From assembly GCA_049970495.1 (NCBI GenBank), contig JBMFMV010000001.1:2604-66603 (forward strand): 64,000 nt of DNA, in the 5' to 3' direction. The notes beneath the pieces are model-generated. The model saw nothing but the letters and a program-made list of their open reading frames with translations. It searched no databases and was not told the origin of the DNA. The stretch comes from a bacterium. GTDB lineage: Bacteria > DUMJ01. A program made the position numbers and the translations under genes. Below, piece by piece: positions 581 through 54,057 of the stretch; the first letter of the stretch is position 1; each line of letters begins with the position of its first letter.

Positions 581-1606
581 CTATTGCCCACTACGTACAC
601 GCGGATCAAGTATTGGTAGTATCAGGTCTATTATTAAGTTTGCAGTCAAGACTGTAATAATAGAAAGTAATGTAATTCCTTGGATTAAATTAAAATCTAA
701 AATACCTATAGCATTAGTCATAAGTCTTCCTATCCCTGGATAATTAAAGACCCATTCTACTATGTAAGCACCGTTCATAATGAATCCTAGAGAGATAGCC
801 AAACCAGTCACCTGTGGTAATAAGACATTTTTCATTACATAGTTCCGTAAAATAGTAAAGGGCTTTAATCCCTTTGCTTCGGCAAAGATAAGATAATCTT
901 CATTCAATATGGAAATAACTAAAGCTCTAGATGATATTATCCATCCTGCTGCAGATGCAAGTATAATAGATAAAGATGGTAAAATGGCATGTTTTAAGAC
1001 GCTAGCTATAAATTTAAAATAAAATCCAGGTCTCAAAAATGCATCATAAGCTCCTGAACTAGGTAAAATAAAAAGGACATAAGCAAAAACAAATACCAGA
1101 AAGATAGCAAAGAAGTATTGTGGAATTTGAGAAAAGAATATAGCAAGTCCTGCTATAAGTTTAGAAAATAACAAATCTCTTTTCCATCCAATCAGAACTC
1201 CGATTATAAGTCCTATTAACCAAGAAATGAATACTGACAAACCAAGAAGTCCTATAGTCCAAGGTAGAGATTCAATTATAAGTTTTTGAGCAGGGGTGGG
1301 AAAAGCGGTAAGCGAAGGACCTAAATTACCTTTTAGGAGATTTTTAACATACTTTATATACTGTGTAAAAAGGCTGCCATTTAAACCAAACATCTCTTTG
1401 TACCTTTCTACTATATCCCCTTCACTACTTTGCAATACTCCTGTAGAGTATCTCTGCTGCATACTAACTATAAAAGCGCCAATAGGATTACCAGGAATTA
1501 GTCTAAAAAAGAAAAAAGTAAGTGTAAATGCTAAATATATTGTAAAAAAATAAGAAATCAAGCGTCTGACCACATAATATCTAAATACTCTTCTTAAGTT
1601 CTTCAT
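581..1606 (-). CDS. ABC transporter permease, OppB/DppB family (binding-protein-dependent inner membrane component)
   Basis: 341-aa ORF with multiple TM helices and an N-terminal RLIPGNP-like segment typical of DppB/OppB. It sits between the SBP gene and the OppC-like gene on the same strand. Confidence 0.85.
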   Translation of the reverse strand: MKNLRRVFRYYVVRRLISYFFTIYLAFTLTFFFFRLIPGNPIGAFIVSMQQRYSTGVLQSSEGDIVERYKEMFGLNGSLFTQYIKYVKNLLKGNLGPSLTAFPTPAQKLIIESLPWTIGLLGLSVFISWLIGLIIGVLIGWKRDLLFSKLIAGLAIFFSQIPQYFFAIFLVFVFAYVLFILPSSGAYDAFLRPGFYFKFIASVLKHAILPSLSIILASAAGWIISSRALVISILNEDYLIFAEAKGLKPFTILRNYVMKNVLLPQVTGLAISLGFIMNGAYIVEWVFNYPGIGRLMTNAIGILDFNLIQGITLLSIITVLTANLIIDLILPILDPRVRSGQ

Positions 1607-1686
1607 CGGGTTCGCTTTCCTCCTATGTATTTTCTATCATACTTGGGGGTTGGATGAATCCAACCCCCAAGTATTTATCCTCTAAG

Positions 1687-3387
1687 TTACTTTGTAGGCT
1701 TGAGATTCAATGTGACAAACAAGAAGTGACCCCACCAAGTAAATGGAACAGTATACATATTGTCTGTTGTAGGCCAGCCCTTCCAATATGTCTGATTCCA
1801 TGCCATAGTATATATGGTCTGTATAACTGGTGCTGCGGGTAAGACCTTAAGATATTCTTCCAACGCCTGATGATAAGTACTTAGCGCTACTTTAGAATCT
1901 GGCGCCATATTAGCTAACTTGCCTACAAGTTTATCTAAAGTTGGGTCCTTAAGTCTTACCCAGTTACCCCTCACAGCTCTCTGGCCTATTGGCATTATTC
2001 TATCACTAGTGAGATTTCGGTAGAGTTCAAACGGATCAGCACCTGCTCCGCATAACCAATGGGAAGTTACTTGGAATTTACCAGTGCTAGTATATTCATC
2101 AAAAACAGGCCCTTCTAGATGTTTCACAGTAATTGTTACACCTATCTTAGCTGCTTCCTGTGCTACATCCTGAGCTATTAGATACTCATATCCAGTAGTT
2201 ACTACGGGAGTTATTATTTCAAGTTCTAAAGGCTTTTCATCAGGTCCAATTCTCTTACCACCGGGACCCATCTTATATCCAACCTCATCTAGCAACTTAG
2301 CTGCTTTTTGCGGATCAAAAGTAAGATCATATTTTTCTAGTACCGTCTTATTAGCAAATTGCTCCATATATTTGTATGCTGCCCAAGGGTATTTAGCAGG
2401 AGTAGTCTCAGGTTTCCAAAGTGTTTTAGCTATCTTCTCTCTATTAATAAGATAAGAAATAGCCCATCTTACCTTAGGATCAGCAGTTGGTCCACTTGTA
2501 CAGTTAAACCATATTCCACGTGGACAAGGGTCTAAGAACGGAGTAATTATGATATTAGGATTTCTCTTCATAGCTACTTCCATCTGTAGATAATCAATAT
2601 TATGAGCATGGTCTATCACATTATTTATAAAATCCTGCAAATCAGCATCTGGTGGAGGAGATGTTCTATATACCACGTATTTAGGACCAGGGAAATATCC
2701 ATACTTCTTCCCCCAATAATCGTCACGACGTTCCCAGATAAACATCTTAAGGTCAGGAATAACCTGCTTTAGCTTGTAAGGAGCGGTCGTTACGGGCGGA
2801 TTATTTTTAAATGTCAGTGGATCCTTACCTTCCCAGATATGTTTTGGAACTATGGGAGTAGCCGTACAAATGAAATTAACAAATCTATAATGGAATCTAG
2901 GTAAGGGCGTCTTAAGATCAAAAACAACGGTATACCGATCTTTAGCCCTTACATCTGCCACTTCCTGTTTCCAAACTTCGCCTCCAAACTCTGGCCTAGA
3001 CATAATCATCTTTACGGTAAAGACAACATCATCGGCTGTAAAAGGCTTACCATCGCTCCAAGTTACTCCACGTCTTAGACTTATAGTACAAGTTTTAAAA
3101 TTATTAGTGTAGCTATACTTTGTAGCTAACCAAGGGACTATCTTTCCAGTTGCAAGGTTACAGTACCATAGATACTCTGTCCCAATCTGCCAGAAACCAG
3201 CAGCGAATTCAACACCGTTAGGCGTAAAATAGTTAAAACTATCAAAAACACGGAATGTAGCAGTATCTTCCATAAATAATGTTTCTTCTCTCGGAACGGG
3301 TAAAGACTGAGAATAAATAGGTAAAGAGAAACTAAAAACCAACAAAATAGCCAAAACATAACTAACTATACTTCTATTAAATCTCAT
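1687..3387 (-). CDS. ABC transporter substrate-binding protein, family 5 (peptide/oligosaccharide/nickel type), secreted or lipoprotein
   Basis: 566-aa ORF with an N-terminal signal peptide (MRFNRSIVSYVLAILLVFSFSLPIYS) and the length and composition of SBP_bac_5. It is the first gene of the permease operon. Confidence 0.85.
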   Translation of the reverse strand: MRFNRSIVSYVLAILLVFSFSLPIYSQSLPVPREETLFMEDTATFRVFDSFNYFTPNGVEFAAGFWQIGTEYLWYCNLATGKIVPWLATKYSYTNNFKTCTISLRRGVTWSDGKPFTADDVVFTVKMIMSRPEFGGEVWKQEVADVRAKDRYTVVFDLKTPLPRFHYRFVNFICTATPIVPKHIWEGKDPLTFKNNPPVTTAPYKLKQVIPDLKMFIWERRDDYWGKKYGYFPGPKYVVYRTSPPPDADLQDFINNVIDHAHNIDYLQMEVAMKRNPNIIITPFLDPCPRGIWFNCTSGPTADPKVRWAISYLINREKIAKTLWKPETTPAKYPWAAYKYMEQFANKTVLEKYDLTFDPQKAAKLLDEVGYKMGPGGKRIGPDEKPLELEIITPVVTTGYEYLIAQDVAQEAAKIGVTITVKHLEGPVFDEYTSTGKFQVTSHWLCGAGADPFELYRNLTSDRIMPIGQRAVRGNWVRLKDPTLDKLVGKLANMAPDSKVALSTYHQALEEYLKVLPAAPVIQTIYTMAWNQTYWKGWPTTDNMYTVPFTWWGHFLFVTLNLKPTK

Positions 3388-3431: not shown

Positions 3432-5122
3432 TCTAAAACCTCTTGTAGTCTCACTTTTAGCTATAGCCTTACTACGTTTCACCCTCACAGCCCAACCTCT
3501 TGATTTTTACCCCTTTGCCTCCTTATCCTAGAATTAAAACTCTAGGACAAGGAGGCGATAACTATGCTAAAATCACAACACTGGATCCCGCATTCATTAT
3601 ACCAGAAAAATCTCCTCAATTCACTAAAATCACTTCCTGACTCTTACAGCGATAGGATTGAAGAATACTCCGACCTTGTAGATAAATTGTTCTACTTTAA
3701 CTTGGATAAAGCTTACCAAATCTTATCCCCTTACTACTCCAATACCGGTAGACCTGCTAAATATCAAGCTGAAATACTTCGCTCCCTCATAGCTATGGTA
3801 CATCTTAGAATCTATAGTATCACTAATTGGGTTAAAAAACTCAAGAATGATAAAATCCTTGCTATCATCTGTGGCTTTGACCCTAACGATGTCCCAGGTG
3901 TCGGTACTTTCTATGACTTCTTGAATAGATTCTAGCTATCTAACAGCGAACCTAACAAGTTAAAAATCCCTCATAGTAAGCCTAAAAAACCTTCTAATCA
4001 ACAGGAGAAACTTCCTCCTAAACATCCCAATGTCGTTAAAGATATCGTAGATAGAATCATTAGCAGTAGAGATGTATCTCTTGGCTCTCAGAGAGTTATT
4101 TCCTTACTCTTCTCTGAGCTTGCAGTTAAGCCTTCTATCAAGATGGGACTAATTGAATCTAACGCTAAGATATCTAGCGACGGTGCACCTGTTGAATCTC
4201 CCTCTAATCCCTATGGCAAAAAGACCTGTGACTGTTCTAAAAAAGGTATCAGACACTGTAAGTGTAAGAGACGTTTCTCCGATCCTTTAGCCAGATGGGG
4301 TTGGGATAGCTACCATAAAAGGTACTTCTTTGGTTATACTCTCTATGCTATTAGCACTAATAATGGCCGTTATGACCTACCCTTACACTTTATACTGCCT
4401 CACCTCTATAGACACGATAGCGTTAGTGCTGTAATAGCTCTATCCCAACTAAAAACTATCCACCCAGAGCAGAATTTCAGCTATTTTATTGCTGATTCCG
4501 CTCACGATAATACCGCTACCTATAGACTCTGTAGGTTCTATGGATTAAATCCTATTATAGAGCTGAATCCTAAGAATACCAGCAAAGAGAAAGTAGCCAG
4601 TTTTGATGATTATGGAAGACCTATCTGCCCTCTTGGCTTACCAATGGTTAATTGGGGATATAACAGGGACCGTTGTAGAATAAAGTGGAGATGTCCAATT
4701 CTAGCAAGTAAGAAGACTAAAAAGCAACTTGGTGAATGCCCTATCAGAGAGCTCTGTTCTGGTTCTAGTTATGGTAGAGTTATATATACTTATCCTGAGA
4801 CTAATCTTAGATTGTTTACCAATCCACCAAGAGGGTCTAAGTTATGGGAGGATATCTATAGTAAGTATCGGTCTTCGGCAGAAAGATGCATGAAGCGTAT
4901 ATTAATAGACTATAAGTTAGAATCCGCTAGGGTCTATAGTAGGAAACAGTGGATATGGAGGATAGCTTTTATATGTATTAACATCCATCTGGACGCTTGG
5001 ATAGACTCTGCTAGACCTAACATAGTTGGAAAACTAGCTAGTTGGGCGCAAAAAGCAGCTTAGACTTAAGATTATCGAAAGCTAAATATAAAGTATAAGA
5101 GAGACTACAAGAAAGGTCTCTT
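3432..5122 (+). mobile_element. Insertion sequence of the IS5/IS1182 superfamily, about 1.7 kb, with imperfect terminal inverted repeats. The element boundaries are approximate.
   Basis: A 12-nt perfect inverted match is present: tcttgtagtctc at 3441-3452 and gagactacaaga at 5101-5112. The match extends to about 20-22 bp with an ACC flank and one 2-nt indel. The repeats bracket a single transposase reading frame. Confidence 0.55.
3564..5063 (+). pseudogene. DDE transposase of the IS5/IS1182-like superfamily. The ~499-codon frame is interrupted by one in-frame TAG at 3933-3935, giving ORFs 3564-3935 and 4143-5063 in the same frame.
   Basis: Both ORFs are in the same frame (3564 and 4143 are both divisible by 3). 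The 207 nt between them translates without any stop (LSNSEPNKLKIPHSKPKK...AVKPSIKMG). The N-terminus carries a GRPAKYQAEILRSLIAMVHL...LAIICGF IS5/IS1182-type domain. The C-terminus has FIADSAHDN and a SAERC..KR motif. Confidence 0.7.
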
Positions 5123-5294: not shown

Positions 5295-6641
5295 TCAAGT
5301 ATCTGCCTCTATATCTTCATATTTCAAGTTATTTGAATCTAAAAATACTCCATCTATTCTAAAAACAGGTTCTTCGGATGTATTACTATCTCGCCTGTAG
5401 ATAATATTTCTCATCTTAACTCTATTCGCACCTTTTAGATAAATCCAGGGTATATGATATAAATAATCAGAAATAGGAATAACCTCACTAGGTCTTATAT
5501 CTATATATTTCCCAAACAAAGCCCTATATTTACTATATCTAAGGTTAAGATTAACATCTTCAATTTTTATATCTTCTATGTTACATCCTTCCCCTATAAC
5601 TATAATTCCATTCTCAGAAACTGCACTGAAATTTTTTACTGATACATCTCTAATAACGTTACCTGAATTAGGGGCAGAGATAACTAAGGGTTCTCCCTTT
5701 CCCCACCAAGTCCCAGCAAAAATCTTGGTCTCTGCTAAAACTTTATCTATCTTAACAGATCTAACCCAACCATTTTTACCGTCTGCAAATATGCCTATCC
5801 CTCGGTTGGAGTCTTTAATGATAAGATTACTTGCTATTACATCCCTAATCTTACTGTCTAAGTTACCAATCCTAAGCCCTGCCGACCTTGTCCTAAGAAT
5901 ACAATTCGAGATAATAATACGTTCACTAGGTATATCCCAGTTAGTAATACCTGTAATAGCTATACAATCATCCCCGCAGGATATATTAGAGTTGGTAATG
6001 ATTACATCTTTACAGGAACATAAATGAATCCCGTCAGAATTAGGTATCCTCAGATTATTTACTATAGAGATGTTCTCTATCCTAATGTTCTCACTAGAAT
6101 GAAAAGAGACTGTCCAACATGGAGAATTTATAATCCTTACATCTTTTACACTCACATTCCTACAATTAAGGAAGAAAATTGGTTGATTGGGTCTTTCTAA
6201 AGTTTTACATTCTACTTCTTGAATTTGGTCTAAAGTAAGTAAATTCAATTCCTCAAAATTATTATGAACCCTAGTAAAATCCATAAAAGAATCTCCCGAG
6301 AGATCGATAGTCCCATTACCTACAATATTTACATTCTCTGCATCCTTCACATAGATTAAAGAAGTGACCTTCTCCCACTTATTATCAATAGACTTAATCT
6401 TTTCATAATCGATCTTTTCATAATCGCCTATATTACTCGAAGCTTTTAATACCCCTCCATTCTCAATAGCTAAGGTTACATTTGACTTAAGAAAGATAGT
6501 CCCGGATAGGTATATCCCTTGAGGGATAATAACCGTTCCACCTAAATTTCGAGCACAATCATCAACTGCTTTCTGAATAACCGAGGTATTAAGAGTAATA
6601 CCGTCACCTACGGCTCCGTAATCTAATATATTTACTTTCAT
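5295..6641 (-). CDS. Glycoside hydrolase family 28 (exo-polygalacturonase-like, beta-helix fold). There is no signal peptide, so it is probably cytoplasmic.
   Basis: GH28 signature segments are present: NSDGIHLCSCKDV, SCGDDCIAITG, and RIGN. The N-terminus is MKVNILDYGAVGDG. Confidence 0.85.
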   Translation of the reverse strand: MKVNILDYGAVGDGITLNTSVIQKAVDDCARNLGGTVIIPQGIYLSGTIFLKSNVTLAIENGGVLKASSNIGDYEKIDYEKIKSIDNKWEKVTSLIYVKDAENVNIVGNGTIDLSGDSFMDFTRVHNNFEELNLLTLDQIQEVECKTLERPNQPIFFLNCRNVSVKDVRIINSPCWTVSFHSSENIRIENISIVNNLRIPNSDGIHLCSCKDVIITNSNISCGDDCIAITGITNWDIPSERIIISNCILRTRSAGLRIGNLDSKIRDVIASNLIIKDSNRGIGIFADGKNGWVRSVKIDKVLAETKIFAGTWWGKGEPLVISAPNSGNVIRDVSVKNFSAVSENGIIVIGEGCNIEDIKIEDVNLNLRYSKYRALFGKYIDIRPSEVIPISDYLYHIPWIYLKGANRVKMRNIIYRRDSNTSEEPVFRIDGVFLDSNNLKYEDIEADT

Positions 6642-6669: not shown

Positions 6670-8886
6670 TTATCCCTCTGAAATAATTCTATCCACCACT
6701 AACTGGCGAAATTCTGGGGAGAGACTACTAAAGTATGCACTAAAGCCAGTAACTCTAACTATCAAATCGGGGTATTTGCTTGGATCTTTATGTGCCTCTA
6801 GGATTTTATCCTTATCTATAATGTTTATATTAACCATAGTTCCGCCTAGATCAAAGTGTACCTTTATAAGATTAGCAATATTTTCTACTGCTTCCTTTTC
6901 GTCTTCAATAAGGGGATCAAGTTCGATCTGCATAGGGGCAGTATTGCCGTACCCAGGCTGAACACTTGCAATAGCTATGGCCATCGCAGTAGCTGCACCA
7001 TCATTCCTAAAACCCGGATCGGGATTAGCACCGTGAGATATAGGGTCACCAGCATACCTTCCATTAGGGGTAGCCCCTAAATTTCTACCCATAGGGATAG
7101 TATTTGCCCAGGAGAATAATCCTGGGATCATATTATACCCGTTAGGGGTAGGCTTCTCTTTAACCATCTTGGTAAACGTCTTAGAGATTCTAACAGCATA
7201 CTCATCGGAAATAGAACTACCGCTACCATATCTAGGGGTATTCCTCATTATCAATCTGATTCTTTCGCCATTTGGTCCAGCCCAGTTATTATCAAGATAG
7301 TACATCAGTTCCTGCCATGTTATCCTTCCCTCTTTTTCAACCCTCTCTTCAATCGCTCCAAAAGAATCAGCAACTGTAGCCAAACCTGCACCATCTACGC
7401 ACATATTATAAAATTCTACCCCTCCATGTGAGGCATCTAGACCTTTCTCTATGGGACCATGAGAACATAGGTCTAAGACTAGCTCCGGGAAAACTCTATG
7501 CATATACTCTAGGTGAAAATCCAACCCTTTAGCTATAGTATCTATGGCTATCTTCAAATGTTTGGTAAATCTATTCCACAACTCTTCAGTACTTGGATTA
7601 CATCCAGACTCCTGCATCATCTCACGGAGAGCAACATCAAATATTGTAGCAAAATTGATCTTTACACAATCCATTATTGTGTATTCTCTTCCCGGTATGC
7701 CATACCAATGACATCCTGCATATGCCCTCTCTCTAGCTATCTCTAAAGGATATCCATTTCTTGCAAACCCATTTACTACGCTATCCGCACCTAGAAACTT
7801 GGGAATTCCCATTTTATCATCAAGTAAAATCTCTACCCCCCTGTATAAAAGACCTCTATCTAATCCATCCCCAACACAGACACCTATATTAGTAGGGATC
7901 CTTAGTCTATGCGCTGCCTCTAAGATTAGATAAGAAAGAGGATTTGTTACGTCTCTACCCTCTCTATCATAACCCCCAAGTTGTATATATGCAGTATCTC
8001 TCAGTAAAAGACATACTATATGGAATATTGCCTCTTCATCGGTTAAGATTCCGGCATCCCTATCCCTCTTATAAAAAGGATAGAGTATTACATCGAGCCT
8101 TCCTAGAGAACCGCTACCATTATACATCCTAGCAGTTATTAAATACCAGAGTATCCATTGACATGCCTCTCTGAAAGTCCTAGGTGGTTCATTTACTAGT
8201 CTTTCATTCATCTTTGCTATCTCTAAAAGGTTCTTCTTTAATTCTGGATCTTCCTCATCCTGAGCCATAGACTTTGCCGTATTAGCAGTCCTATAAATCC
8301 AATCCTGAATCCCTAAAACTACAGATTCTAAACCATCATAAAATTCAGAGGATTCTGGATTATTCATCTTTCTATAGTATCTGATCTTATCTAAAATGCC
8401 TTTCCATCCTAATCTAAGTCCTATCTCCATATCCTGACAGAAATGCTGTGCTGCGCCAATACCTGTAACTAGCTGATATAATTTCTGCTCCCTATGAAGG
8501 TAGGAATAATCAAAATCTGGATTCCAATGAGGATTTCTATAGGACATAAAGTTGACCATATAAGCCCCAGCAAGAGAACTTATTGGGTCTATATATACAG
8601 GGTGCACCTCTAAAAGTCTCCTAAAGTTTTCACCACAAGATTTAGGCCCAAAGAATCCTCCACTCGGATGATTGGGAATAAATTTAAAGCTTTTTAATAG
8701 AACATCTGTTATGGGCATTCCAGAAGAACTAATCGTTTTTACTATTTCTCTTTCTTCCTGAGGAGGGAGGATCAGTCCCCAGTCATCATGGTCCATAAAA
8801 CCAACAATTTCCTGCTTTTCTCTTGTATGCTCCAATTTCTTAGCACGAAGCAGACCTATTCTCTCTTGATAAGTTAAAATAGCCAT
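6670..8886 (-). CDS. Glycyl radical enzyme of the PFL2/glycerol-dehydratase-like family, substrate unknown
   Basis: 738 aa. The C-terminal glycyl-radical motif VRVTGFSAYF is present. A single candidate active-site Cys lies in GCHWYGIPG, with no PFL-type CC pair. A GRE activase gene lies immediately downstream. Confidence 0.8.
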   Translation of the reverse strand: MAILTYQERIGLLRAKKLEHTREKQEIVGFMDHDDWGLILPPQEEREIVKTISSSGMPITDVLLKSFKFIPNHPSGGFFGPKSCGENFRRLLEVHPVYIDPISSLAGAYMVNFMSYRNPHWNPDFDYSYLHREQKLYQLVTGIGAAQHFCQDMEIGLRLGWKGILDKIRYYRKMNNPESSEFYDGLESVVLGIQDWIYRTANTAKSMAQDEEDPELKKNLLEIAKMNERLVNEPPRTFREACQWILWYLITARMYNGSGSLGRLDVILYPFYKRDRDAGILTDEEAIFHIVCLLLRDTAYIQLGGYDREGRDVTNPLSYLILEAAHRLRIPTNIGVCVGDGLDRGLLYRGVEILLDDKMGIPKFLGADSVVNGFARNGYPLEIARERAYAGCHWYGIPGREYTIMDCVKINFATIFDVALREMMQESGCNPSTEELWNRFTKHLKIAIDTIAKGLDFHLEYMHRVFPELVLDLCSHGPIEKGLDASHGGVEFYNMCVDGAGLATVADSFGAIEERVEKEGRITWQELMYYLDNNWAGPNGERIRLIMRNTPRYGSGSSISDEYAVRISKTFTKMVKEKPTPNGYNMIPGLFSWANTIPMGRNLGATPNGRYAGDPISHGANPDPGFRNDGAATAMAIAIASVQPGYGNTAPMQIELDPLIEDEKEAVENIANLIKVHFDLGGTMVNINIIDKDKILEAHKDPSKYPDLIVRVTGFSAYFSSLSPEFRQLVVDRIISEG

Positions 8887-8897
8887 ATCTATTCCTC

Positions 8898-9800
8898 CTA
8901 ATAGATTTTTTCTCTATCGATATATCTTCCCATCAAATCTTTAATCTTCTCTATATCCTCCTTTTTTGGAGGCTCTAGCTCTAAAATTCCTCTTCTATTA
9001 TTGAATAACCATGGCTTACTTAAGCCTAATTTGTGATAGGGTAAGAGCTTTACTCTTCTTACAGATTTAAGTTTGGCTATAAAATTGGCAACTGCTACTA
9101 TATTCTCTCTAGAATCATTATATCCAGGTATAATAGGGACCCTTATCTCTATCCATTTCTCTGCTCTATCTAGTCTGTAAAGATTTTCTAGTATTATCTC
9201 ATTTGGAACCCCTGTGAGCTTTTTATGTTCTTCTGAGTTCATATGTTTAATGTCGTATAAAAAGATGTCAACAAAAGGTAACAGGTCTTTAAGCTTATCC
9301 CAAGAGACAAAACCAGACGTGTCTAACGCTGTAGAGATACCATTCTCTTTACAAGACTTTAGTAGATCTAGACAAAAATCGAATTGAAAAGTTGGTTCTC
9401 CTCCGGAAAGTGTAACTCCTCCGGATTGTTTGTAAAAAGGGATATCTTTGATAACTTCATCTAAGACCTCCTCTAAATCATAAATTTTACCCTGTAATAC
9501 AATGGCTCTAGCCGGACAGGCATCTACACACTTAAAACAAAATCGACAGAACTTTTCATCATACTTCTTCCCCTTTAAATTATCATTCTGCAAAGCTCCA
9601 GTAGGACAGACTAGGACACAGGAATTACATCCTATACACTTGTGCCTATAGAACGCCAATTCAATCTTAGGGCTTATAGATTCAGGATTATGACACCAGA
9701 GACACCTTAAAGGGCAACCTTTAAAGAAGACAGTAGTTCTAATTCCTGGTCCATCGTGTAGAGAAAATCTCTGTATATCAAATATAATACCACTACTCAT
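8898..9800 (-). CDS. Glycyl-radical enzyme activating protein (radical SAM enzyme with an extra ferredoxin-like domain)
   Basis: CxxxCxxC radical-SAM motif in GCPLRCLWCHNPE. Two additional 4Fe-4S motifs are present: CIGCNSCVLVCP and CRFCFKCVDACP. The GGE SAM-binding segment is GGEPTFQ. Confidence 0.85.
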   Translation of the reverse strand: MSSGIIFDIQRFSLHDGPGIRTTVFFKGCPLRCLWCHNPESISPKIELAFYRHKCIGCNSCVLVCPTGALQNDNLKGKKYDEKFCRFCFKCVDACPARAIVLQGKIYDLEEVLDEVIKDIPFYKQSGGVTLSGGEPTFQFDFCLDLLKSCKENGISTALDTSGFVSWDKLKDLLPFVDIFLYDIKHMNSEEHKKLTGVPNEIILENLYRLDRAEKWIEIRVPIIPGYNDSRENIVAVANFIAKLKSVRRVKLLPYHKLGLSKPWLFNNRRGILELEPPKKEDIEKIKDLMGRYIDREKIY

Positions 9801-9862
9801 ATAAAGATTAGCTCCATATTATTACAAAAAATTTACTACTAATATATAGTAAAATAGATATC

Positions 9863-11041
9863 ATGGCAAGAGTTATACTAAAGAAGAAAGAACACATAAA
9901 TATAGTAAGAGGTTTTCCTTGGATATTCGACAATGAGATAGCAAGGATCGAGGGGAATTTCTCCCCTGGAGATGTGGTTGATATATACGACATAACCAAT
10001 TCCTTTCTAGGAAGAGGTTATATAAATCCAAAGTCAAAGATTACTGTAAGGGTACTAACGAGAAAAGAGGAAAAGATAGATAAAGACTTTTTCTCTAAAA
10101 GGATACTCCAAGCATGGGAGTATAGGAAGAGACTTGTAGATACAAGATCCTGCAGGGTAGTATTTGGAGAGGCAGATATGCTCCCCGGCTTAATTGTAGA
10201 TAAATTTGAGGACGTGCTTGTAATACAGACACTAGCATTAGGAATAGATAGGGTTAAAGATGTTATCGTTGAAGTATTAGACGAGATATTCCAGCCTAGA
10301 GGAATATATGAGAGGAATGATGTCCCTGTTAGGGAGGTAGAAGGGCTTCCGCAAAAGAAGGGCTTTTTAAAGGGAATCTTTGATACAAAGGTTGAGATAG
10401 AAGAAAATGGATTAAGGTTAATTGTAGATGTAGAGAATGGACAGAAGACAGGATATTTCCTTGACCAGAGAGAAAACAGAAATGCCTTAAAGGGTATTGT
10501 AGATGGAGCAGAGGTCCTTGATACCTTCTGTTATACTGGTTCTTTTGCTTTTCATGCTGTAAAATTTGGAGCCAAAAAGGTTATTGCAGTAGATTCATCC
10601 GCTTCAGCTCTAGAACTTGCCAGAAAGAATGCTGAACTTAACGGATTTGAAGAAAAGATAGAGTTTATTGAGGGGAATGTATTCGATATCTTGAGAGACT
10701 TTTATAAGAGTGGAAAGGTATTTGACGTCATCATATTAGACCCACCGGCATTTGCAAAAACTCAAAGGCACATTGAAGGGGCTATCAGAGGATATAAGGA
10801 AATAAACCTAAGGGCTATTAAGATGATACGGGACGGAGGGTTTTTAGTTACCTGTTCTTGTTCACAGCATATTACACCTGAAATCTTTCAAAGGATAATA
10901 GACTCTGCAAGGATTGATGCCAATAAAATCCTTAGGCTTGTTGAATTTAGAACTCAGGCAAAGGACCATCCTATACTCCTTTCCTATCCTGAGTCTTTAT
11001 ATCTTAAATGTGGAATATATCAAGTCCTGAGAAAAAGTTGA
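9863..11041 (+). CDS. rlmI: 23S rRNA m5C methyltransferase RlmI-like (PUA domain plus class I SAM-dependent MTase)
   Basis: 392 aa. The N-terminus is PUA-like. DPPAF is present in the MTase motif IV position. The overall length and architecture match RlmI. Confidence 0.7.
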   Translation: MARVILKKKEHINIVRGFPWIFDNEIARIEGNFSPGDVVDIYDITNSFLGRGYINPKSKITVRVLTRKEEKIDKDFFSKRILQAWEYRKRLVDTRSCRVVFGEADMLPGLIVDKFEDVLVIQTLALGIDRVKDVIVEVLDEIFQPRGIYERNDVPVREVEGLPQKKGFLKGIFDTKVEIEENGLRLIVDVENGQKTGYFLDQRENRNALKGIVDGAEVLDTFCYTGSFAFHAVKFGAKKVIAVDSSASALELARKNAELNGFEEKIEFIEGNVFDILRDFYKSGKVFDVIILDPPAFAKTQRHIEGAIRGYKEINLRAIKMIRDGGFLVTCSCSQHITPEIFQRIIDSARIDANKILRLVEFRTQAKDHPILLSYPESLYLKCGIYQVLRKS

Positions 11042-11050
11042 GTTAAGCTA

Positions 11051-12190
11051 TTATAGCTTTACTGTAAAGACCACTATTATTGCAGAGATAAGCATTACTA
11101 TAGCGGTAGAGATAAATATGCTACTTATACCCCAGATAGACCCTATAAGCCCACCTATAAATGGACCACCAAACATCCCAATACCATATATAGCTTGGAA
11201 AAATCCCATAGCTGTAGCCCTCTTCTCTAGGGGGACCTCTAGTATACTTAAGCCCATAAGCACAGGATAGTTTATACCCCTAGAGATACCTCCTAGACAT
11301 TGAAGGAGGCCAAGTAAGAAGAAACTCTTTGTAAATGGAACAAAAAGGGAAGAAACCATAGCAAAGATGAAACCTGAGAATAAAAGAACCCTTTTTGAGA
11401 ATCTAGAAAAGAGCATCCTACTATTTAGAAGTGAAGCAATTGCAGCAGGGATAGAAGACAGGAAAGTTAGTATCCCAAGGGAGCTCTTAGAAAGCCCTAT
11501 ATTAGCAGCATAAACGGGTAAGAAACCATATGTAGTAACAAAGGTAAAATACTGGACCAAGATAGCTAGAACCGATGAAACTAATAAAAGACGCGTCTTC
11601 CCAACTTTTATCAATTCTGCTAGAGAAAGGTTATTAGAATTTCTCGAGACTTCCTCTTTTATAAAAAGGGCCGGAACTAAACCTACTAATGCTACTATTC
11701 CTGCAAGATAAAAGGGGGCAGTCCAACCTATATTTTGAGCAATAAAACCCCCAAATAGTGTAGCTACCAATTGTCCTGATTGAGTAAAAAAGTTTAAAAG
11801 ACTCAAGGAGGAGATAACTTTAGAAGGGTCAAAATAGCTTGAAAAAAGGGTTGTAAATGCTACCCATGTAGTAGCTGATACACCACTTAATCCTCTAAAA
11901 ACTAAAAGACCTAGCGGAGATTTAGCTAGTGCTAAACCAAAACCACTCACTATAGAAAATATAAAACCTAAGATTATAAAGGGTTTTCTTCTCTGAATCT
12001 TATCGGACCATACCCCTAACGGAATTCTTAACAGAAATTGGGTAAACCCGTAAGAGCCAACAATAAGTCCTATAATCCTTAGAGAACTCCCTAAGCTCTC
12101 CGCATAAGGAGATAGAATAGGAGTATAGACATACAGAGAAAACCAAAATAGAAAAGTGGAGACAAAGAAATATACCAGCTTATCCTTCAA
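11051..12190 (-). CDS. MFS transporter
   Basis: 379 aa with about 12 predicted TM helices. An MFS motif GxxSDKIQRRKP follows TM2. Confidence 0.8.
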   Translation of the reverse strand: MKDKLVYFFVSTFLFWFSLYVYTPILSPYAESLGSSLRIIGLIVGSYGFTQFLLRIPLGVWSDKIQRRKPFIILGFIFSIVSGFGLALAKSPLGLLVFRGLSGVSATTWVAFTTLFSSYFDPSKVISSLSLLNFFTQSGQLVATLFGGFIAQNIGWTAPFYLAGIVALVGLVPALFIKEEVSRNSNNLSLAELIKVGKTRLLLVSSVLAILVQYFTFVTTYGFLPVYAANIGLSKSSLGILTFLSSIPAAIASLLNSRMLFSRFSKRVLLFSGFIFAMVSSLFVPFTKSFFLLGLLQCLGGISRGINYPVLMGLSILEVPLEKRATAMGFFQAIYGIGMFGGPFIGGLIGSIWGISSIFISTAIVMLISAIIVVFTVKL

Positions 12191-22395: not shown

Positions 22396-24042
22396 ATGTC
22401 TTTAGAGCATTATACTAAGACTGTAAAGGCAATGGATGAATCTATCTTTAAGGCCCTCGCAAGACAGGTCGAGGACCCTAATCGTTTTGACTATGGGGGG
22501 ATAGAAAAACCAAATTTAGGTTTAGCAGACTCAGAGTACGGGATAAATGACTTATTAAGTGTATATTTCTGTCCAGATTCCAAATTCTATCTCTCCGAAG
22601 AATTAAGGAAAAGATTGATCAGGGCTCTCGAATTCTTGATAAGAAATCAGCATGAAGATGGAACAATAGACCTCTACGAAACAAACTTTCATTCTCCACC
22701 AGATACCTCTTTTAGAGTATGGGTCTATGCCCCTTGGGTCGAATATCTAAGAAAAATAGGAATAGAAAAGGACATACTCTTTCTTCTAGAACACTTTCTA
22801 AAAAAGGCTATTCCAGCACTAAAGAGTGGAGGCTTTCATACTCCAAACCATAGATGGGTTCAGGCATCCGCATTAGCAAGATTGGGAACTCTATTTGGAG
22901 ATGATGAGTGTAAGCTTATCGCTAAAGAATATTTAGAGGAAGGGATAGACTGTAATAGAGATGGACTTTTCTATGAAAGAAGTCTAGGTGTTTATAACCC
23001 TATATGTGGTATAGCTATGCTATGGTTAGCTGAGGATTTAAAAATGCCAGAACTTGCAAACTATACTGAAAAGGTCTTAGACTTTGCCACTTACTTTCTA
23101 GAACCAGATGGGACACTCCTAAATACGTTTTCTCTTAGGCAGGATAGGGGCATTAGGATGCCTGCTGATGTTCGTTACTATTATCTGTTCAAGAAGATGG
23201 GCATTTTAAAGGGAAATGGCACATACTTATATGCAAGTGATGTGATTTTTGATGGTAACCTAAATAGATTAGGAGAAGGATTTAATCCCCTACATCTTTT
23301 CTTATTCTACCCTGAATTCAAAGATGAATCTATAGAGAGAAAACCTCTTCCAAGGTCTGGTATATTCTATTTTGAAAACAGTGGAGTAGTCAGGATAAAT
23401 TCAAATAAAAATAGCCTTACGTTTACAAAAGATAGCGATGAATTCTTAACAATAGTTTTTGGTGATGTGGATATAAGATTTCGTTATCTTACATCATTCT
23501 TTGGGAAGGGACCATTTGTTGGTTCATCCTTAGAGAAAGATGCCAATAGCTACAGCTTAAAGCAGAAGATCACTTGGGGTTATACAGACCTTCTTCCAAA
23601 AGAAGAAAGGGGAAAAGAAACCCAATGGAATAAGATGAATCACTCTTTGAGAAGATGGATAAAGATGCAGGAGATCTCTACAGAAATAACATTAAGTCCA
23701 GAAGATTTAGGAAGAGTTAAGCTTTCTATAAAGACAGAAGGATGTGAGAATGTCCTTTCAGCATTAGAGGTGGCATTACCAAAGGATGGGGAGGTAAGTT
23801 TTGAAGGAAAGGCGACAAGATTAAAAGAAGATATATTCCTATTGGAAGAAGGGAAACTTAGATATCAAAAAGAAAATTCGTTCTTCGAGATATCACCAGG
23901 GTCTAAGGCTCATAAATTGGTAGATTATAGGGGAGATAAATATTTAAAGCGTAAGGATAAAATTTATGTATTTATAACATTTCGTTCCCCATTTGAATAT
24001 ACCTTAGACTTCTCTTATGGAGAAATCTTTAAATTTGGCTAG
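22396..24042 (+). CDS. Hypothetical 548-aa protein, possibly an (alpha/alpha)-toroid polysaccharide lyase/heparinase-II/III-like fold. It appears co-transcribed with leuB.
   Basis: Long ORF beginning 3 nt after the leuB stop. There is no signal peptide. The composition is rich in aromatic residues, in the style of carbohydrate-active enzymes. The fold assignment is a guess. Confidence 0.4.
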   Translation: MSLEHYTKTVKAMDESIFKALARQVEDPNRFDYGGIEKPNLGLADSEYGINDLLSVYFCPDSKFYLSEELRKRLIRALEFLIRNQHEDGTIDLYETNFHSPPDTSFRVWVYAPWVEYLRKIGIEKDILFLLEHFLKKAIPALKSGGFHTPNHRWVQASALARLGTLFGDDECKLIAKEYLEEGIDCNRDGLFYERSLGVYNPICGIAMLWLAEDLKMPELANYTEKVLDFATYFLEPDGTLLNTFSLRQDRGIRMPADVRYYYLFKKMGILKGNGTYLYASDVIFDGNLNRLGEGFNPLHLFLFYPEFKDESIERKPLPRSGIFYFENSGVVRINSNKNSLTFTKDSDEFLTIVFGDVDIRFRYLTSFFGKGPFVGSSLEKDANSYSLKQKITWGYTDLLPKEERGKETQWNKMNHSLRRWIKMQEISTEITLSPEDLGRVKLSIKTEGCENVLSALEVALPKDGEVSFEGKATRLKEDIFLLEEGKLRYQKENSFFEISPGSKAHKLVDYRGDKYLKRKDKIYVFITFRSPFEYTLDFSYGEIFKFG

Positions 24043-25387: not shown

Positions 25388-26260
25388 TCACCTCCTTACA
25401 AGAGTTTCGATAGGACCTATTACTCTTATTACGCCTCGCTCATCTATCTCAATCAGATGTGTCCTTCTATCATGTCCGCACATCCTACAACCATCTATTC
25501 TTAAGGTATGTATTGTATCTCCTAAGGACCTATTATAGAGATTTGCCAATGCTTTACTTGAAAGGACCATCTTAGATAGGACTATCGTACAGTCTAGGAT
25601 ATGAGGGACAGCATATCCACCTGCAGCCTCTGCAGATTCTTCTTCATGACTGCTTCTCTTTTGAGAGATAAATATCGATGTTTGATAGTATCTTTTCATA
25701 ACCTCGTATAACTTTCTTACAATAGTCCTAGCCAGCATCTCTTTCCCTTCATAAAGACCAGTGATGGAGTCAACAATTGTTGATTTTATGTTATTATTCT
25801 CGATAGTCTCACTTATAACTCTATCGAGCTTTACTATATTGTCTCTTAGCTCCGGATATTTTGTCACATCCAAGACAAATATCCTATCTTCTATCTCATC
25901 CCAATCTATTCTCAAAGCCCTAGCCCTTTCTCTTAGGCTTTGGGCAAGGAAGGGCGTAGGTATTTCTACACTTACAAAAAGCACATTGTAACCTCTACTA
26001 GCCTGAGATAATGCAAACTGTTCACCCATAATGGATTTTCCAGTATCAGGAACACCTGTTATGTGTATTACCGCAGAGGAAGGAAATCCACCAAGAGGAA
26101 TCCTCCTTGGTTCATCCACATCATATTCAAAGGTGAAAAATAAATCGTCTAGCCCTGGAACACCAGAAGGAATTCCAAAAAGTTTAGGTATACTTTCTCT
26201 AATCTTGGACAAAGGCAGTGCCTCTGGAATGGTGCTATTAACGGTATCTTTTGCCACCAT
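25388..26260 (-). CDS. KaiC/RadA-like RecA-superfamily ATPase, single domain, 290 aa
   Basis: The Walker A motif is GVPDTGKS. The Walker B motif is hydrophobic followed by D (STIVDSITG). The overall KaiC/GvpD/ArlH-like layout is seen. Confidence 0.7.
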   Translation of the reverse strand: MVAKDTVNSTIPEALPLSKIRESIPKLFGIPSGVPGLDDLFFTFEYDVDEPRRIPLGGFPSSAVIHITGVPDTGKSIMGEQFALSQASRGYNVLFVSVEIPTPFLAQSLRERARALRIDWDEIEDRIFVLDVTKYPELRDNIVKLDRVISETIENNNIKSTIVDSITGLYEGKEMLARTIVRKLYEVMKRYYQTSIFISQKRSSHEEESAEAAGGYAVPHILDCTIVLSKMVLSSKALANLYNRSLGDTIHTLRIDGCRMCGHDRRTHLIEIDERGVIRVIGPIETLVRR

Positions 26261-28950: not shown

Positions 28951-31203
28951 TTATTTAAGTTTTGCTAAGAGGTCATTCAGCATCTCTTCTGTAAATGCAC
29001 CCCTACTAAAGTTAATTAAGCTCCTCAGGGGCATATATCTAAACATAGCCCTCATCATTTGAGAACCTTCCCCTGTTGTGGCAAAAAACGGCATACTTTC
29101 TTTCAACTGCTCCATTAATTGGCTAAATATCATAGAGCCCATTTGGTCTTCTAGAAGATCACCTATTGGGGTATTTCTAGTAAACTGTTTTTTCACCTTT
29201 TTAGTAGAATTGACCTTAATAGTCTCTCTGAGGCGTATATCCTTTGAAGAACGCCCAACTAGTATCTCAAACTCTCCTGTCTCTACGTACCAGTCTTTTA
29301 TATCGACATTGTAGTAAGCAAATGCCCTTTTATCTAATGTAAATGTTATACTTTTTTCTTCTCCTGGCTGTAGCTCTATCTTCTCAAATCCCTTCAATTC
29401 TTTCTCTGGTCTTATTACACTACTTTCAACATCTCTTATGTATAATTGAACAATCTCTTTTCCAGGTATATTCCCGGTATTCTTTACCTTGACTGTTACA
29501 GTTACGGTCTCATCATCATTTACTTCTCTTTTATCGACAGAGATTTCAGTATATTCAAAATTAGTGTAACTCAGACCATAACCAAATGGGAATAACGGCT
29601 CTATTCCTTTCTTATCATAGTATCTATATCCAACAAAGATCCCTTCTCTGTACTCGACCCTATCATCTTCTCCAGGAAAATTTAGATAAGATGGATTATG
29701 GCTCAATCTTTTTGGAAATGTCTCCGCCAATTTTCCACAAGGATTAGTAATGCCAAAGAGTAGCTCAGCTATGGCACTCCCTCCTCCCTGTCCAGCTAGG
29801 TAAGTCTCAAATAGTCCTTTTACTTTATCTATCCACGGCATCTCTACAGGTGAACCGTTAGAAAGGACAACAATTGTATTTTTTTGAACCTTAGCTACTT
29901 CAAAGATCAGTCTATTATGACTCTCAGGCATACGCATATGAGGCCTATCGTAGCCTTCGGATTCGTAGTCTTCTGGTAAGCCGGCAAAGATGATAGCAAC
30001 ATCTGCCTTTTGGGCAATCTCCTTTGCCTCACTTATAAGGTTCTCATCTATCTCTTCGGAGGTAGGCTCATAGCCTTGGGCGTAGAGAAGTCTAACACTA
30101 TTCCCTACAATCTTTTCTATCTCGTCATAAGGGATGTCTATCATAGTAGGATTTACATGGGAGCTCCCACCACCTTCAAGTCTAGGGTTCTTGGCAAACG
30201 CACCTATAATAGCAATAGTCCCCTGTTTCTTCAGTGGAAGTATGCCATCCTCATTTTTTAATAGGACCATACACTCTCTTGCTACATCTCTTGCTAACTT
30301 ATGGTGAGTCAGTTTGTCATAGGTAGCTCCCTCTTTTTTATTATCTATAGCTCTAAAGATGACCCTTAATAATCTCTCTACTGCCCTGTCCAAGACTTCC
30401 TCAGGGAGTTTACCACTTTTTACCGCTTCAACTATCTTTTTATCATTTATCCCATAGCTAGATGGCATCTCTAGCTCTAAGCCTGCCATAAGTGCAGAGA
30501 CCCTATCATCAACTGCTCCCCAATCTGAGACAACAAAACCCTCATGCCCCCACTCTTCTTTTAAGACCTTTGTAAGAAGAAACTCATTCTCACTACAGTA
30601 TTTACCATTAATCTTGTTATAGGCAGACATCACTGTCCATGGCTGTGCAAACCTTACAGCATTTTCAAAACTAGCTAAGTATATCTCTCTCAGGGTCCTT
30701 TCATCTATTATCTCATCTATCGAATGCCTTCTATGCTCCTGATTGTTAGCAGCAAAATGTTTTATTGATGTCCCAACACCCTGACTCTGGACCCCTATTA
30801 TATGACTTTTGGCAAGCTCTGAAGAAAGGTATGGGTCTTCAGAAAAGTATTCAAAGTTTCTTCCACATAGAGGTGAACGCTTTATATTAACTGCAGGTCC
30901 AAGTATAATTGATACACCTTCTGCTTGACACTCTTCTCCTATAGCTCTACCAACTTTTTCTATCAAAGACCTGTCCCAGGAACATGCCAGACAAGAGGCT
31001 GTAGGGAAACATGTTGCAGGGATGCTTTCAAAAGGTCCTAGACCTGCCTGTTTCCTAAGTCCATGTGGTCCATCGGTCATCATAATTGATGGTATACCTA
31101 GCCTTTCTATTGGTTTTGTATGCCACATATCTAAGCCAGAACAAAGACTTGCCTTTTCTTCAAGGGTCATCTGAGAGATGATCTTTTTGATATCCCTCTC
31201 CAT
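28951..31203 (-). CDS. Glycoside hydrolase family 3 (beta-glucosidase/beta-xylosidase-like) with a C-terminal Fn3-like domain. Start is reassigned to the internal ATG at 31203.
   Basis: GH3 motifs are present: GPHGLRK, SDWGAV, and a C-terminal beta-sandwich domain. The RBS AAGGAGGTG lies 6 nt upstream of ATG(31203), giving MERDIKKII. The ORF-track start at 31239 lacks an RBS. Confidence 0.8.
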
Positions 31204-31291
31204 TAATAGCACCTCCTTATACTTGTAATTCCAATACACTTAGTAGTATACTAAAGTTAAAGCAAAGATTCAAACAGGAGGTGGTGCTTCA

Positions 31292-41181: not shown

Positions 41182-41904
41182 GTGGGAAATATTAGAGTAA
41201 CTGTATGGAATGAATTTCGCCATGAGAAAATTCATGAGGAGGTAAAAAAGGTATATCCAAATGGCATACACAATGTAATCGCAGAGTTTCTGAAAAAGCA
41301 GCCAGGGATAGAGGTAAAAACCGCTACTCTAGATGAACCAGAGCATGGCTTAACCCAGGAGGTCTTAGATAATACCGATGTACTTATATGGTGGGGTCAT
41401 ATGGCACACAATGAGGTGAATGATGAGATTGTAGAGAGGGTATATAATAGAGTATTAAATGGAATGGGGCTCATTGTCTTACACTCTGGGCATCTATCTA
41501 AAATCTTTAGAAAACTTATGGGAACAAGCTGTATGTTAAAGTGGAGAGAAGCTGGAGAAAAGGAGAGAATATGGGTTTTAGAGCCTGGACACCCTATAGC
41601 TGAAGGTCTAGGGGAATATTTCGAGATACCCCACACAGAGATGTACGGTGAAAGATTTGATATTCCTAAACCAGATGAACTAGTCTTCATAAGCTGGTTT
41701 AAAGGTGGAGAGGTATTTAGAAGTGGTTGTTGCTTCTATAGAGGAAAGGGTAAGATATTCTACTTTAGGCCTGGTCATGAGACATTCCCAATATACTATC
41801 AGCCAGAGGTTCAGAAGGTTATATATAACGCAGTCAAATGGGCTGCGCCTATAAAAGGGCCAGAGATTCGTTTTGGTAATGTAAAACCATTAGAAGAGAT
41901 CTAA
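41182..41904 (+). CDS. ThuA-like trehalose-utilization / class I glutamine-amidotransferase-like protein
   Basis: 240 aa, GTG start with an AAGAAGGTGA RBS upstream. ThuA-like motifs are present: DVLIWWGH and HSGH. Confidence 0.6.
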
Positions 41905-53211: not shown

Positions 53212-53213
53212 TT

Positions 53214-54056: not shown

Positions 54057-54057
54057 A

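Follow-up and report, generated by a model that had tools for sequence, protein, structure and literature searches.

The subject of this report is a pair of adjacent genes, encoding a glycyl radical enzyme (GRE) and its activating enzyme (activase), found in a 64,000-nucleotide stretch of bacterial contig JBMFMV010000001.1 (GenBank assembly GCA_049970495.1), referred to below, at its full length, as the window. Working along the minus strand from position 9800 down to 5295, we see a three-gene operon that runs from the activase, a radical S-adenosylmethionine (SAM) protein of 300 amino acids (8898–9800; Pfam Radical_SAM, Fer4_12 and Fer4; TIGR02494), through the catalytic subunit of the GRE, of 738 amino acids (6670–8886; Pfam PFL-like and Gly_radical), to a GH28-family beta-helix glycosidase of 448 amino acids, cytoplasmic and of uncertain specificity (5295–6641; Pfam GH28). 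The genes are closely spaced, with 11 nt between activase and GRE and 28 nt between GRE and GH28, and AGGAGG sites lie 5' of the starts of both the GRE and GH28 genes; the direct flanks of the pair are an RlmI-like gene and the GH28 gene. A previous interpretation of this DNA, made without database searches (the sequence-only reading), had proposed the pairing of a GRE with its activase; open reading frame (ORF) coordinates, Pfam and TIGR02494 all agree, and on these predictions the pair is a genuine one. We are confident that it represents a functional GRE, belonging to a clade as yet uncharacterised.

The catalytic subunit matches the Pfam families PFL-like (PF02901; 1.8e-96) and Gly_radical (7.3e-15). 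Its predicted glycyl radical site is the ‘Gly loop’ R711-V-T-G714-F715 (6742–6756, minus strand; G714 codon 6745–6747), part of the motif RVTGFSAYF at residues 711–719, and the core RVxG[FWY] of this loop is present in 120/120 relatives among the matches listed. A longer published GRE fingerprint (x6-8[FL]x4Qx2[IV]x2R) is missed by the window protein through a one-residue shift; the same fingerprint is matched by only 30 of 51 representatives of the C-x-E type described below. The predicted thiyl cysteine, C392, lies in the ‘Cys loop’ G391-C392-H393-W394 (7705–7716, minus strand; C392 codon 7711–7713), within GCHWYG from residue 391, and of the 10 cysteines in the protein it alone occupies this loop. 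Both motifs had been correctly picked out in the sequence-only reading.

Absent from that reading is what we regard as the key feature of the window GRE, namely a Cys-x-Trp arrangement on the Cys loop. C392 aligns gap-free with the catalytic cysteine of PflD, HpsG and glycerol dehydratase, whether a single sequence or a family profile is used; A-G-C-H-W-Y-G-I-P-G-R of the window protein pairs with V-G-C-V-E-L-S-I-P-G-R of PflD, with G-C-T-E of HpsG and with G-C-V-E of glycerol dehydratase. As these alignments are ungapped, the glutamate found two residues after the cysteine (Cys+2) in eliminases is replaced here by Trp394. According to a June 2026 review of the superfamily (PMC13450708), C-x-E is kept in all six C-O eliminases, in CutC, in three C-S lyases and in three isomerases, its Glu being hydrogen-bonded to substrate and essential in CutC and IslA, and a Cys-Cys pair is restricted to pyruvate formate-lyase (PFL) and TdcE; no class with Trp at Cys+2 is among those described there, and many GRE clades are still without annotation. 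Our literature search, which took in the GRE papers from 2025–2026, brought up none that deals with a C-x-W GRE or its clade.

No characterised family claims the protein. The NCBIfam model that it matches best, TIGR01774 (PFL2 / glycerol dehydratase subfamily), gives 282 bits against a cut-off of 678; the HpsG, HypD, HpfG and CutC equivalogs give 187–238 bits against 1000–1100, the large subunits of indoleacetate (IAD) and hydroxyphenylacetate (HPAD) decarboxylase 155 and 131 bits against 1100 and 1150, and the true PFL model TIGR01255 102.5 bits against 994.2, with a match limited to C-terminal residues 549–737; the window GRE thus reaches 10–42% of every cut-off. A search of all PDB sequences puts E. 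coli PflD first (8yjo; phmmer 4e-60, about 21–23% identity), with HpsG, glycerol dehydratase, HypD, propanediol dehydratase and CutC close behind; a family profile returns the same ranking (PflD, 1e-78). Identity to all solved GREs is 19–23%, with no close identity to any characterised enzyme, and the solved chains of BSS and MASS rank near the bottom of the GRE matches. At 738 amino acids the protein is, as previously remarked, shorter than the solved PFL2-type GREs (765–850 amino acids).

An AlphaFold model built from a 21-sequence alignment is of moderate confidence (pLDDT 75.9, falling below 50 in the Gly loop) and appears to place G391-C392 at the tip of a hairpin, flanked by strands 388–390 and 393–396. 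Foldseek matched this model to 50 listed solved GRE chains with a probability of 1.00 and TM-scores of 0.62–0.71, which, together with PF02901 and within the limits of a moderate model, assigns it to the ten-stranded barrel fold of PFL-like proteins; as all solved GREs are equally distant, this comparison adds nothing beyond the sequence searches. The window GRE is, then, PFL2-like by fold and nearest neighbours, and a member of no characterised family. To this extent the earlier PFL2-like placement, beside the glycerol/propanediol dehydratases, choline lyase and aryl decarboxylases, stands only loosely, and we find it too generous: the TIGR01774 and equivalog cut-offs are missed, C-x-E is lacking and the enzyme sits on a separate, strongly supported C-x-W branch; the accompanying claim, of an unassigned enzyme that is not a true PFL, holds in full, with no Cys-Cys pair, a TIGR01255 score far below cut-off and no family cut-off reached.

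Membership of other known types was also considered. The window's ORF list holds no X-succinate synthase beta or gamma subunit genes, and no small ORF lies between or beside the pair that might encode an HPAD-type small Fe-S subunit; microcompartment shell-protein Pfam families were absent from the called genes of those relatives' loci with precomputed Pfam annotation, small ORFs of the window beyond the pair being unscanned. On the membership tests we rejected a link to microcompartments, the presence of small subunits, and an identity as either PFL or dehydratase. The exact GRE sequence had no match in public assemblies.

The activase passes TIGR02494 comfortably (352 bits against a cut-off of 174), reaches no substrate-specific activase equivalog cut-off in NCBIfam, and falls below the cut-off of the BssD-type model TIGR04003 (243 bits against 496). 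Its CX3CX2C radical-SAM cluster motif, CPLRCLWC at C29–C36 (9693–9716, minus strand), was located by regular expression and coordinate check. The ferredoxin-like insert reported by the sequence-only reading is borne out by two CX2CX2CX3C motifs (C55–C65 and C85–C95; 9516–9638, minus strand), within a Pfam Fer4 dicluster match to residues 53–100. All tested features of the TIGR02494 (PflC/PflE-type) activases, that is the score, the CX3CX2C motif and the two-motif insert, are therefore present.

Close relatives of the GRE are numerous: a word-indexed search returned at least 120 clusters (737–798 amino acids, 66–92% identity to the window GRE), from metagenome-assembled genomes (MAGs) labelled Anaerolineae/Chloroflexota, Bacillota and Armatimonadota, the named members being labelled ‘formate C-acetyltransferase’, ‘pyruvate formate lyase family protein’ or ‘pyruvate-formate lyase’. 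Over 121 sequences carrying several phylum labels, 185 of the 738 positions are at least 98% conserved, a pattern that suggests purifying selection on the family; alignment A1, of 21 sequences, shows no variation at G391, C392 or W394 and at least 90% conservation of H393. An exhaustive search of 1.84 billion representatives then extends the picture, with the identity of full-length relatives dropping from 59% to 42% and then to 34–28%. C-x-W is present in 25 of 89 full-length representatives (x being H, N, Q, F, Y, P or G), the remainder being mostly C-x-E. A neighbour-joining tree drawn from the best 150 hits to the window GRE joins the window GRE and the 25 C-x-W sequences in one clade. When PflD and YbiW are included and E. 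coli PflB serves as the outgroup, this clade is monophyletic in 40/40 bootstraps of this distance-based method and for this sample of one query's hits; PflD and YbiW group with the C-x-E sequences, outside the clade, and PflB is the most distant.

The two groups differ at more than the defining residue. Position 394 is Trp in 26/26 clade members (Glu in 53/53 C-x-E representatives, by definition), and position 406 is Asp in 26/26, against 13/53 of the C-x-E set; similarly, Glu401 is found in 23/26 (11/53) and Tyr402 in 23/26 (8/53), whilst position 621 is Asn in 21/26, where C-x-E representatives have mostly Ser, and position 593 is Trp in 18/26, where they have mostly Val, Tyr or Phe. His148, the equivalent of His164 in glycerol dehydratase, is common to both (23/26 and 48/53). 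A swap at position 297 (acidic in C-x-W, hydrophobic in C-x-E) was not relied on, the alignment there containing indels.

Labels on the genomes and MAGs that carry the clade read Chloroflexota, Bacillota, Armatimonadota, Spirochaetia/Treponema, Bacteroidota and Chlorobiota. A sister C-N-W type occurs in the cultured Hydrogenispora ethanolica, Puteibacter caeruleilacunae and Chakrabartyella piscis, as well as in Treponema, Spirochaetia, Oscillospiraceae and Chlorobiota MAGs, and one 90%-identity C-N-W cluster comprises 3435 member sequences. The C-x-W Cys loop marks a large, uncharacterised, misannotated and sugar-associated GRE clade. Paralogues are also encountered: an Anaerolineales MAG (L005) has two C-x-W GRE genes in tandem, flanking a single activase gene, and a Candidatus Limiplasma MAG has two on separate contigs (L009, L011), with differing neighbours.

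At least 431 metagenome stretches encode a relative of the window GRE. Loci were sampled from species-representative genomes (14), metagenomes (80) and exact look-ups (7); the GRE was found in 99 loci (98 fetched, plus the window), which reduce to 85 groups after dereplication at 95% identity. ORFs were called and clustered and the recurrent clusters annotated, most singleton ORFs being left unannotated. The activase adjoins the GRE in 55/99 loci (45/85 groups), usually directly upstream and on the same strand. Beyond this, 14 of the 85 groups have a CUT1 sugar ABC transporter nearby, 13 (and one found later) a URO-D-like gene, at least 10 a glycoside hydrolase, 10 GFO/IDH/MocA dehydrogenases in one to six copies, six an enolase-superfamily dehydratase and five a PfkB kinase; 46 groups have at least one carbohydrate-type neighbour, a count that is a lower bound and a raw figure uncorrected for genome background. 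The glycosidases are diverse (GH28, GH127, GH130, GH95, GH38, GH32, GH36/31, GH2, GH116, GH20 and DUF2961), with one GH130 passing the cut-off for beta-1,2-mannobiose phosphorylase; mannitol-dehydrogenase-like, D-lyxose isomerase and ROK genes are further neighbours in the C-H-W family.

Close relatives differ in what surrounds the pair. GH28 follows the GRE in just two of the 99 loci, the window and a 97%-identical MAG contig (L001); the link to GH28 is not a conserved one. In L022, whose GRE is 92% identical, the upstream synteny is the same (RlmI-like, MFS, Old-Yellow-Enzyme-like and other genes) and the downstream genes are a GH127 and a sugar ABC transporter, with no GH28; relatives at 83–84% identity have GFO/IDH/MocA pairs or GH130 as neighbours. 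Since neighbours change in this way between close relatives, the activase–GRE pair behaves as a two-gene module amid varying carbohydrate genes. More distant members show further arrangements: the operon of a C-N-W enzyme consists of a ribose-binding-protein-like CUT2 ABC transporter, activase, GRE and ROK; a C-H-W enzyme of 48% identity has a divergent Peripla_BP_3 + AraC-HTH regulator nearby; and a C-F-W enzyme of 30% identity is encoded in the order SIS, sugar ABC transporter, URO-D, activase, GRE, URO-D. This joining of sugar importers to three diverged C-x-W subclades is our strongest evidence for a free sugar-like substrate. Phosphotransferase-system (PTS) genes were not seen at C-x-W loci, unlike the E. 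coli pflD locus. When partner proteins were compared with solved structures, no ligand could be assigned: the CUT1 binding protein resembles generic sugar binders, and the CUT2 protein ribose-binding proteins. The context thus supports the radical step in carbohydrate catabolism that had been suggested earlier, though not one specific to uronates; we agree with the sequence-only reading that the substrate is not readable from the sequence.

The URO-D/MtaA-like partners carry a conserved H-x-C-G motif and are weakly MtaA/CmuA-like, with a single weak match among solved structures. Such a gene directly follows the GRE in L057, L066, L078, L087, L049 and others, and at the C-F-W locus L111 two are found (5397–6557 and 9904–11160); the partner recurs across subclades that are only 30% identical to each other, in every case together with a sugar ABC transporter. 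Corrinoid proteins were not seen in the URO-D-containing GRE operons. In L031, L045 (12779–14170) and L046, genes of the MTTB family (trimethylamine methyltransferase-like) are two or three genes removed from the GRE and adjoin enolase-superfamily dehydratases.

Returning to the window, the GH28 protein (Pfam GH28, 3e-20) has as its best solved match the Thermotoga maritima exo-poly-alpha-D-galacturonosidase 3JUR (8e-34, equal length). As its beta-helix begins at residue 2, which aligns to residue 27 of the Thermotoga enzyme, it has no signal peptide, in agreement with the intracellular location previously given to it. The catalytic Asp motifs are kept (NSDG and GDD, against NNDG and GDD in 3JUR); in this single pairwise alignment ‘SHGG’ of 3JUR becomes ‘RSAG’ and ‘RLK’ becomes ‘GIF’, exchanging His for Ser, Arg for Gly and Lys for Phe. 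In polygalacturonases, the His of G-H-G and the Arg and Lys of R-I-K bind the galacturonate carboxylate. With these three residues replaced, the name ‘polygalacturonase’, used in the sequence-only reading, is unproven for the window protein, which reaches no NCBIfam polygalacturonase cut-off (177 against 600 bits), nor a rhamnogalacturonidase one, and may, to judge by its residues, be inactive on galacturonides.

A candidate promoter, TTGCCA-17-TATATT (9841–9869, minus strand; a 10/12 match in a consensus scan), lies 5' of the activase start. Promoter-like sites in the region are no more frequent than in shuffled sequence, and promoter and terminator scans around the operon both gave counts near the shuffled expectation, so that the transcript boundaries stay predicted ones. 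The downstream boundary of the operon is an insertion sequence (IS) element of 1672 bp (3441–5112, no strand assigned), with 19-nt imperfect inverted repeats (3441–3459 and 5094–5112, 89% complementary); its IS1182-like transposase is split into two ORFs (3564–3935, an N-terminal fragment, and 4143–5063, with DDE_Tnp_1 and IS1182 matches), and the element is therefore probably inactive. It separates the GH28 gene from a same-strand SBP_bac_5 / Opp-type ABC transporter (581–3387, the SBP_bac_5 protein being encoded at 1687–3387). A strong promoter-like site, TTGACA-16-TAAAAT, is seen at 5260–5233 (minus strand), between the GH28 gene and the IS insertion.

The other sugar genes that the sequence-only reading had drawn into the argument are present in the window: GH3 (28951–31239), GH4 (31292–32647), ThuA (41182–41904) and a fucose-isomerase-like gene encoding a fucose-isomerase-C-domain protein (41919–43334). 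They are, however, some 19–35 kb away, past leucine-type biosynthesis, UvrABC and pyrF genes; unrelated by distance, they lie outside the GRE locus. Also far from the GRE, a xylose-isomerase-like TIM barrel protein is paired with a GFO/IDH/MocA oxidoreductase (53202–55083). The ThuA, fucose-isomerase-C, xylose-isomerase-like and GFO/IDH/MocA families are often tied to keto-sugar chemistry. By tblastn, the window contains no URO-D, MR_MLE, PfkB, GH130, mannitol dehydrogenase, MTTB or GH127 gene, the sole partner-family match being the distant GFO-family gene at 54043–55083. Elsewhere, two ORFs are without a Pfam match (22396–24042, 548 amino acids, E 1e-5; 43408–44301, 297 amino acids, E 1e-6), and a stand-alone KaiC-family ATPase (25388–26260) and a RadA-like gene (zinc ribbon, KaiC-like ATPase and ChlI) followed by DisA (46170–48606) are ordinary housekeeping genes. 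The host belongs to an uncultured lineage: its leucyl-tRNA synthetase (57261–59705) is 80–91% identical only to bacterial MAGs, and about 60% identical to that of thermophilic Bacillota such as Thermosediminibacter, Moorella and Caldicellulosiruptor; the GC content of the window is about 38%.

Alongside the observed gene pair, motifs, clade and context counts, we infer a substrate class, a role for W394 and a type of reaction. The reading we prefer, and to which we would give roughly an even chance, is that of a variant GRE whose substrate is a free sugar-like molecule in contact with Trp394, proton transfer being performed by other residues. In the superfamily at large the glycyl radical acts as a radical store and a thiyl radical abstracts the substrate hydrogen (PMC13450708). 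Here, the SAM-binding [4Fe-4S] cluster of the activase, aided by the two auxiliary clusters, would take a hydrogen from Gly714 to leave a stable glycyl radical; at each turnover the radical would move from Gly714 to the tip of the Cys loop, where Cys392 lies, and the resulting thiyl would take a hydrogen atom from the substrate, to be given back to the product radical at the end. W394, assigned to the pocket because its position contacts substrate in all solved eliminases, would line that pocket and pack on the substrate. Trp is a typical carbohydrate-stacking residue and cannot deprotonate a hydroxyl; proton transfers would fall to D406, E401 and H148, the clade-conserved candidates for acid/base residues, D406 being at Cys+14, where glycerol dehydratase has Asp447. 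The substrate may be a free, unphosphorylated sugar or derivative, either imported by the ABC transporters or set free in the cytoplasm by exo-glycosidases, the GH28-like protein among them. With a sugar, polyol or anhydro-sugar in free form as substrate, the net reaction would be redox-neutral and cleave a C-O bond, by dehydration or by opening a ring, to yield a deoxy-keto sugar for neighbouring GFO/IDH/MocA dehydrogenases and PfkB kinases to process further. We consider a carbohydrate-derived substrate reasonably probable; C-O cleavage as the reaction is put forward much more tentatively.

Several points weigh against this proposal. Members of the clade are known from sequence alone, and we know of no precedent for a C-O eliminase that dispenses with the Cys+2 Glu, making the reaction type a guess; the putative contacts of W394, D406 and E401 with substrate are read from their positions in the sequence, the structure model being of moderate confidence. 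The recurrent URO-D/MtaA-like partner is not accounted for by sugar C-O cleavage. The neighbourhoods are heterogeneous, with no partner other than the activase in more than about 16% of dereplicated groups, and enrichment of sugar genes is not shown statistically, as there is no background rate and Anaerolineae-like genomes are rich in carbohydrate genes. We also entertain, as a possibility rather less favoured, that C-x-W denotes a further functional class of GRE, performing on free sugars a radical reaction so far unseen in the superfamily. The candidates here are C-C scission, epimerisation or ether (O-methyl) cleavage, for which no base on the Cys loop is needed and in which some lineages may employ their URO-D/MtaA-like partners.

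Amongst more conventional explanations, that of a pyruvate formate-lyase (formate C-acetyltransferase), which has on its side the names given to relatives by JGI and NCBI and the common PFL-like fold, is effectively refuted by the sequence and, in our view, extremely improbable: a single Cys (G-C-H-W) stands in place of the Cys-Cys pair, the second Cys of PflB aligning to C392 and being followed by V-S, the low TIGR01255 score (102 against 994 bits) comes from the C-terminal 190 residues only, and no focA-like formate channel gene is adjacent to the GRE. An ordinary but divergent PFL2-type 1,2-eliminase or isomerase, working on a diol, glycerol or an anhydro-sugar-phosphate, would be in keeping with TIGR01774 as best model, with PflD, HpsG and glycerol dehydratase as best solved matches, and with the alignment of His148 and Asp406 to His164 and Asp447 of glycerol dehydratase; the replacement of the C-x-E Glu by Trp in 26/26 clade sequences, the wide margin by which every family cut-off is missed, the 40/40 support for a separate clade, and loci that have neither PTS genes nor an aldolase like the fsaA/fsaB of the E. 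coli loci make it very unlikely. We think little better of the idea, in line with what the sequence-only reading suggested, that the radical enzyme is specific to pectin or uronates and works in functional coupling with the neighbouring GH28 protein. The tight operon (a 28-nt gap, with the GH28 gene having its own ribosome-binding site), the exo-polygalacturonosidase as best solved match, and the genes of sugar-acid type near some relatives (enolase-superfamily dehydratases, DHDPS-family, GD_AH_C and PfkB) are all as it would have them. However, the pectin link is weakened by the occurrence of GH28 in only two, near-identical, loci and by the loss of the polygalacturonase His, Arg and Lys; L022 has the same upstream genes and yet a GH127 and sugar transporter downstream, and the mannitol-dehydrogenase-like neighbours of relatives score best as mannitol-1-phosphate dehydrogenase rather than as uronate reductases.

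Two further alternatives take their cue from the neighbourhoods. The URO-D/MtaA-like partners and occasional MTTB genes leave room for methyl- or ether-related chemistry, in which the clade may remove or process a methyl or other sugar substituent (by O-methyl ether cleavage, for example) together with these proteins: H-x-C-G URO-D-like genes adjoin the GRE in about 14 dereplicated C-H-W groups and stand on both sides of the gene for one C-F-W GRE, at 30% identity, and MTTB-family genes lie near the GRE at the three loci named above. Set against this are the window itself, with no URO-D gene by tblastn, the operons with no corrinoid protein, the weakness of the URO-D similarity (27–56 bits) and the lack of a biochemical precedent, and we judge the idea improbable, on a par with the pectin-specific one. 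A non-carbohydrate substrate, with the nearby sugar genes simply mirroring the gene content of saccharolytic hosts, is also unlikely, if slightly less so; it gains from the variable neighbourhoods, from the many loci with housekeeping neighbours (rimP-nusA-infB, peptidases, DNA methylases) and from neighbour counts that are raw and without background correction, but must contend with sugar ABC transporters in the same operon in three deeply diverged subclades and with regulators of the sugar-sensor type (ROK, Peripla_BP_3 + AraC).

Newly assigned GRE clades have so far each revealed a new anaerobic pathway, as for choline to trimethylamine, hydroxyproline, isethionate and anhydroglycolysis. 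The C-x-W clade is large and extends over several phyla, and the residue that sets it apart is the one defining eliminase/isomerase chemistry; given its presence in sugar-uptake operons, it probably marks an unrecognised anaerobic route for a carbohydrate-derived compound. Databases give its members the name formate acetyltransferase; where Anaerolineae and comparable uncultured groups have been credited, from their genomes, with cleaving pyruvate to formate, the claim may therefore be wrong. Were the clade indeed a new functional class, it would be one widespread in Chloroflexota, Bacillota, Spirochaetota, Bacteroidota and gut and sediment metagenomes, and systematically counted as pyruvate formate-lyase in metabolic reconstructions. 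The co-operonic binding proteins offer a direct experimental handle on the substrate.

Of the known systems, the closest are PflD and YbiW, GRE isomerases that open the rings of 1,5-anhydromannitol-6-phosphate and 1,5-anhydroglucitol-6-phosphate (PDB: 8YJO, 8ID0, 8ID7). PflD/YbiW represent the best solved match by phmmer and profile (E-values as above) and by Foldseek (E 1e-33, TM 0.70), and share with the window GRE a single-Cys loop followed by I-P-G-R, an Asp at Cys+14, an adjacent activase with a ferredoxin insert and a sugar-related operon. They differ in being only about 21% identical, in having C-V-E where the window has C-H-W, in being some 30–70 amino acids longer and in falling outside the C-x-W clade; moreover, their E. 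coli loci encode PTS components and F6P-aldolase paralogues, in line with a phosphorylated substrate, whereas the C-x-W clade has ABC importers. The B12-independent glycerol and 1,2-propanediol dehydratases (PDB: 1R8W, 5I2A) have the same PFL2-type fold and type of activase, and the equivalents of His164 and Asp447 are conserved by alignment as H148 and D406; in contrast, Glu435 of their C-V-E is Trp in the window GRE, which misses their TIGR01774 model, is some 50–100 amino acids shorter, and has relatives whose annotated loci are without microcompartment shell genes. With PflB and TdcE it shares the superfamily, the RVxG radical-glycine core and the database name given to its relatives, but not the Cys-Cys pair, the similarity being confined to the region of the C-terminal glycyl radical domain (549–737). 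Phenylacetate decarboxylase (PAD), compared here by its published residue list only, differs in its aryl-acetate substrates, and the IAD and HPAD models, as given above, score far below their cut-offs; the essential residues of PAD nevertheless include Gln484 and Trp495 rather than a Cys-loop Glu (PMC13450708), from which it follows that Cys-loop chemistry can vary among GREs.

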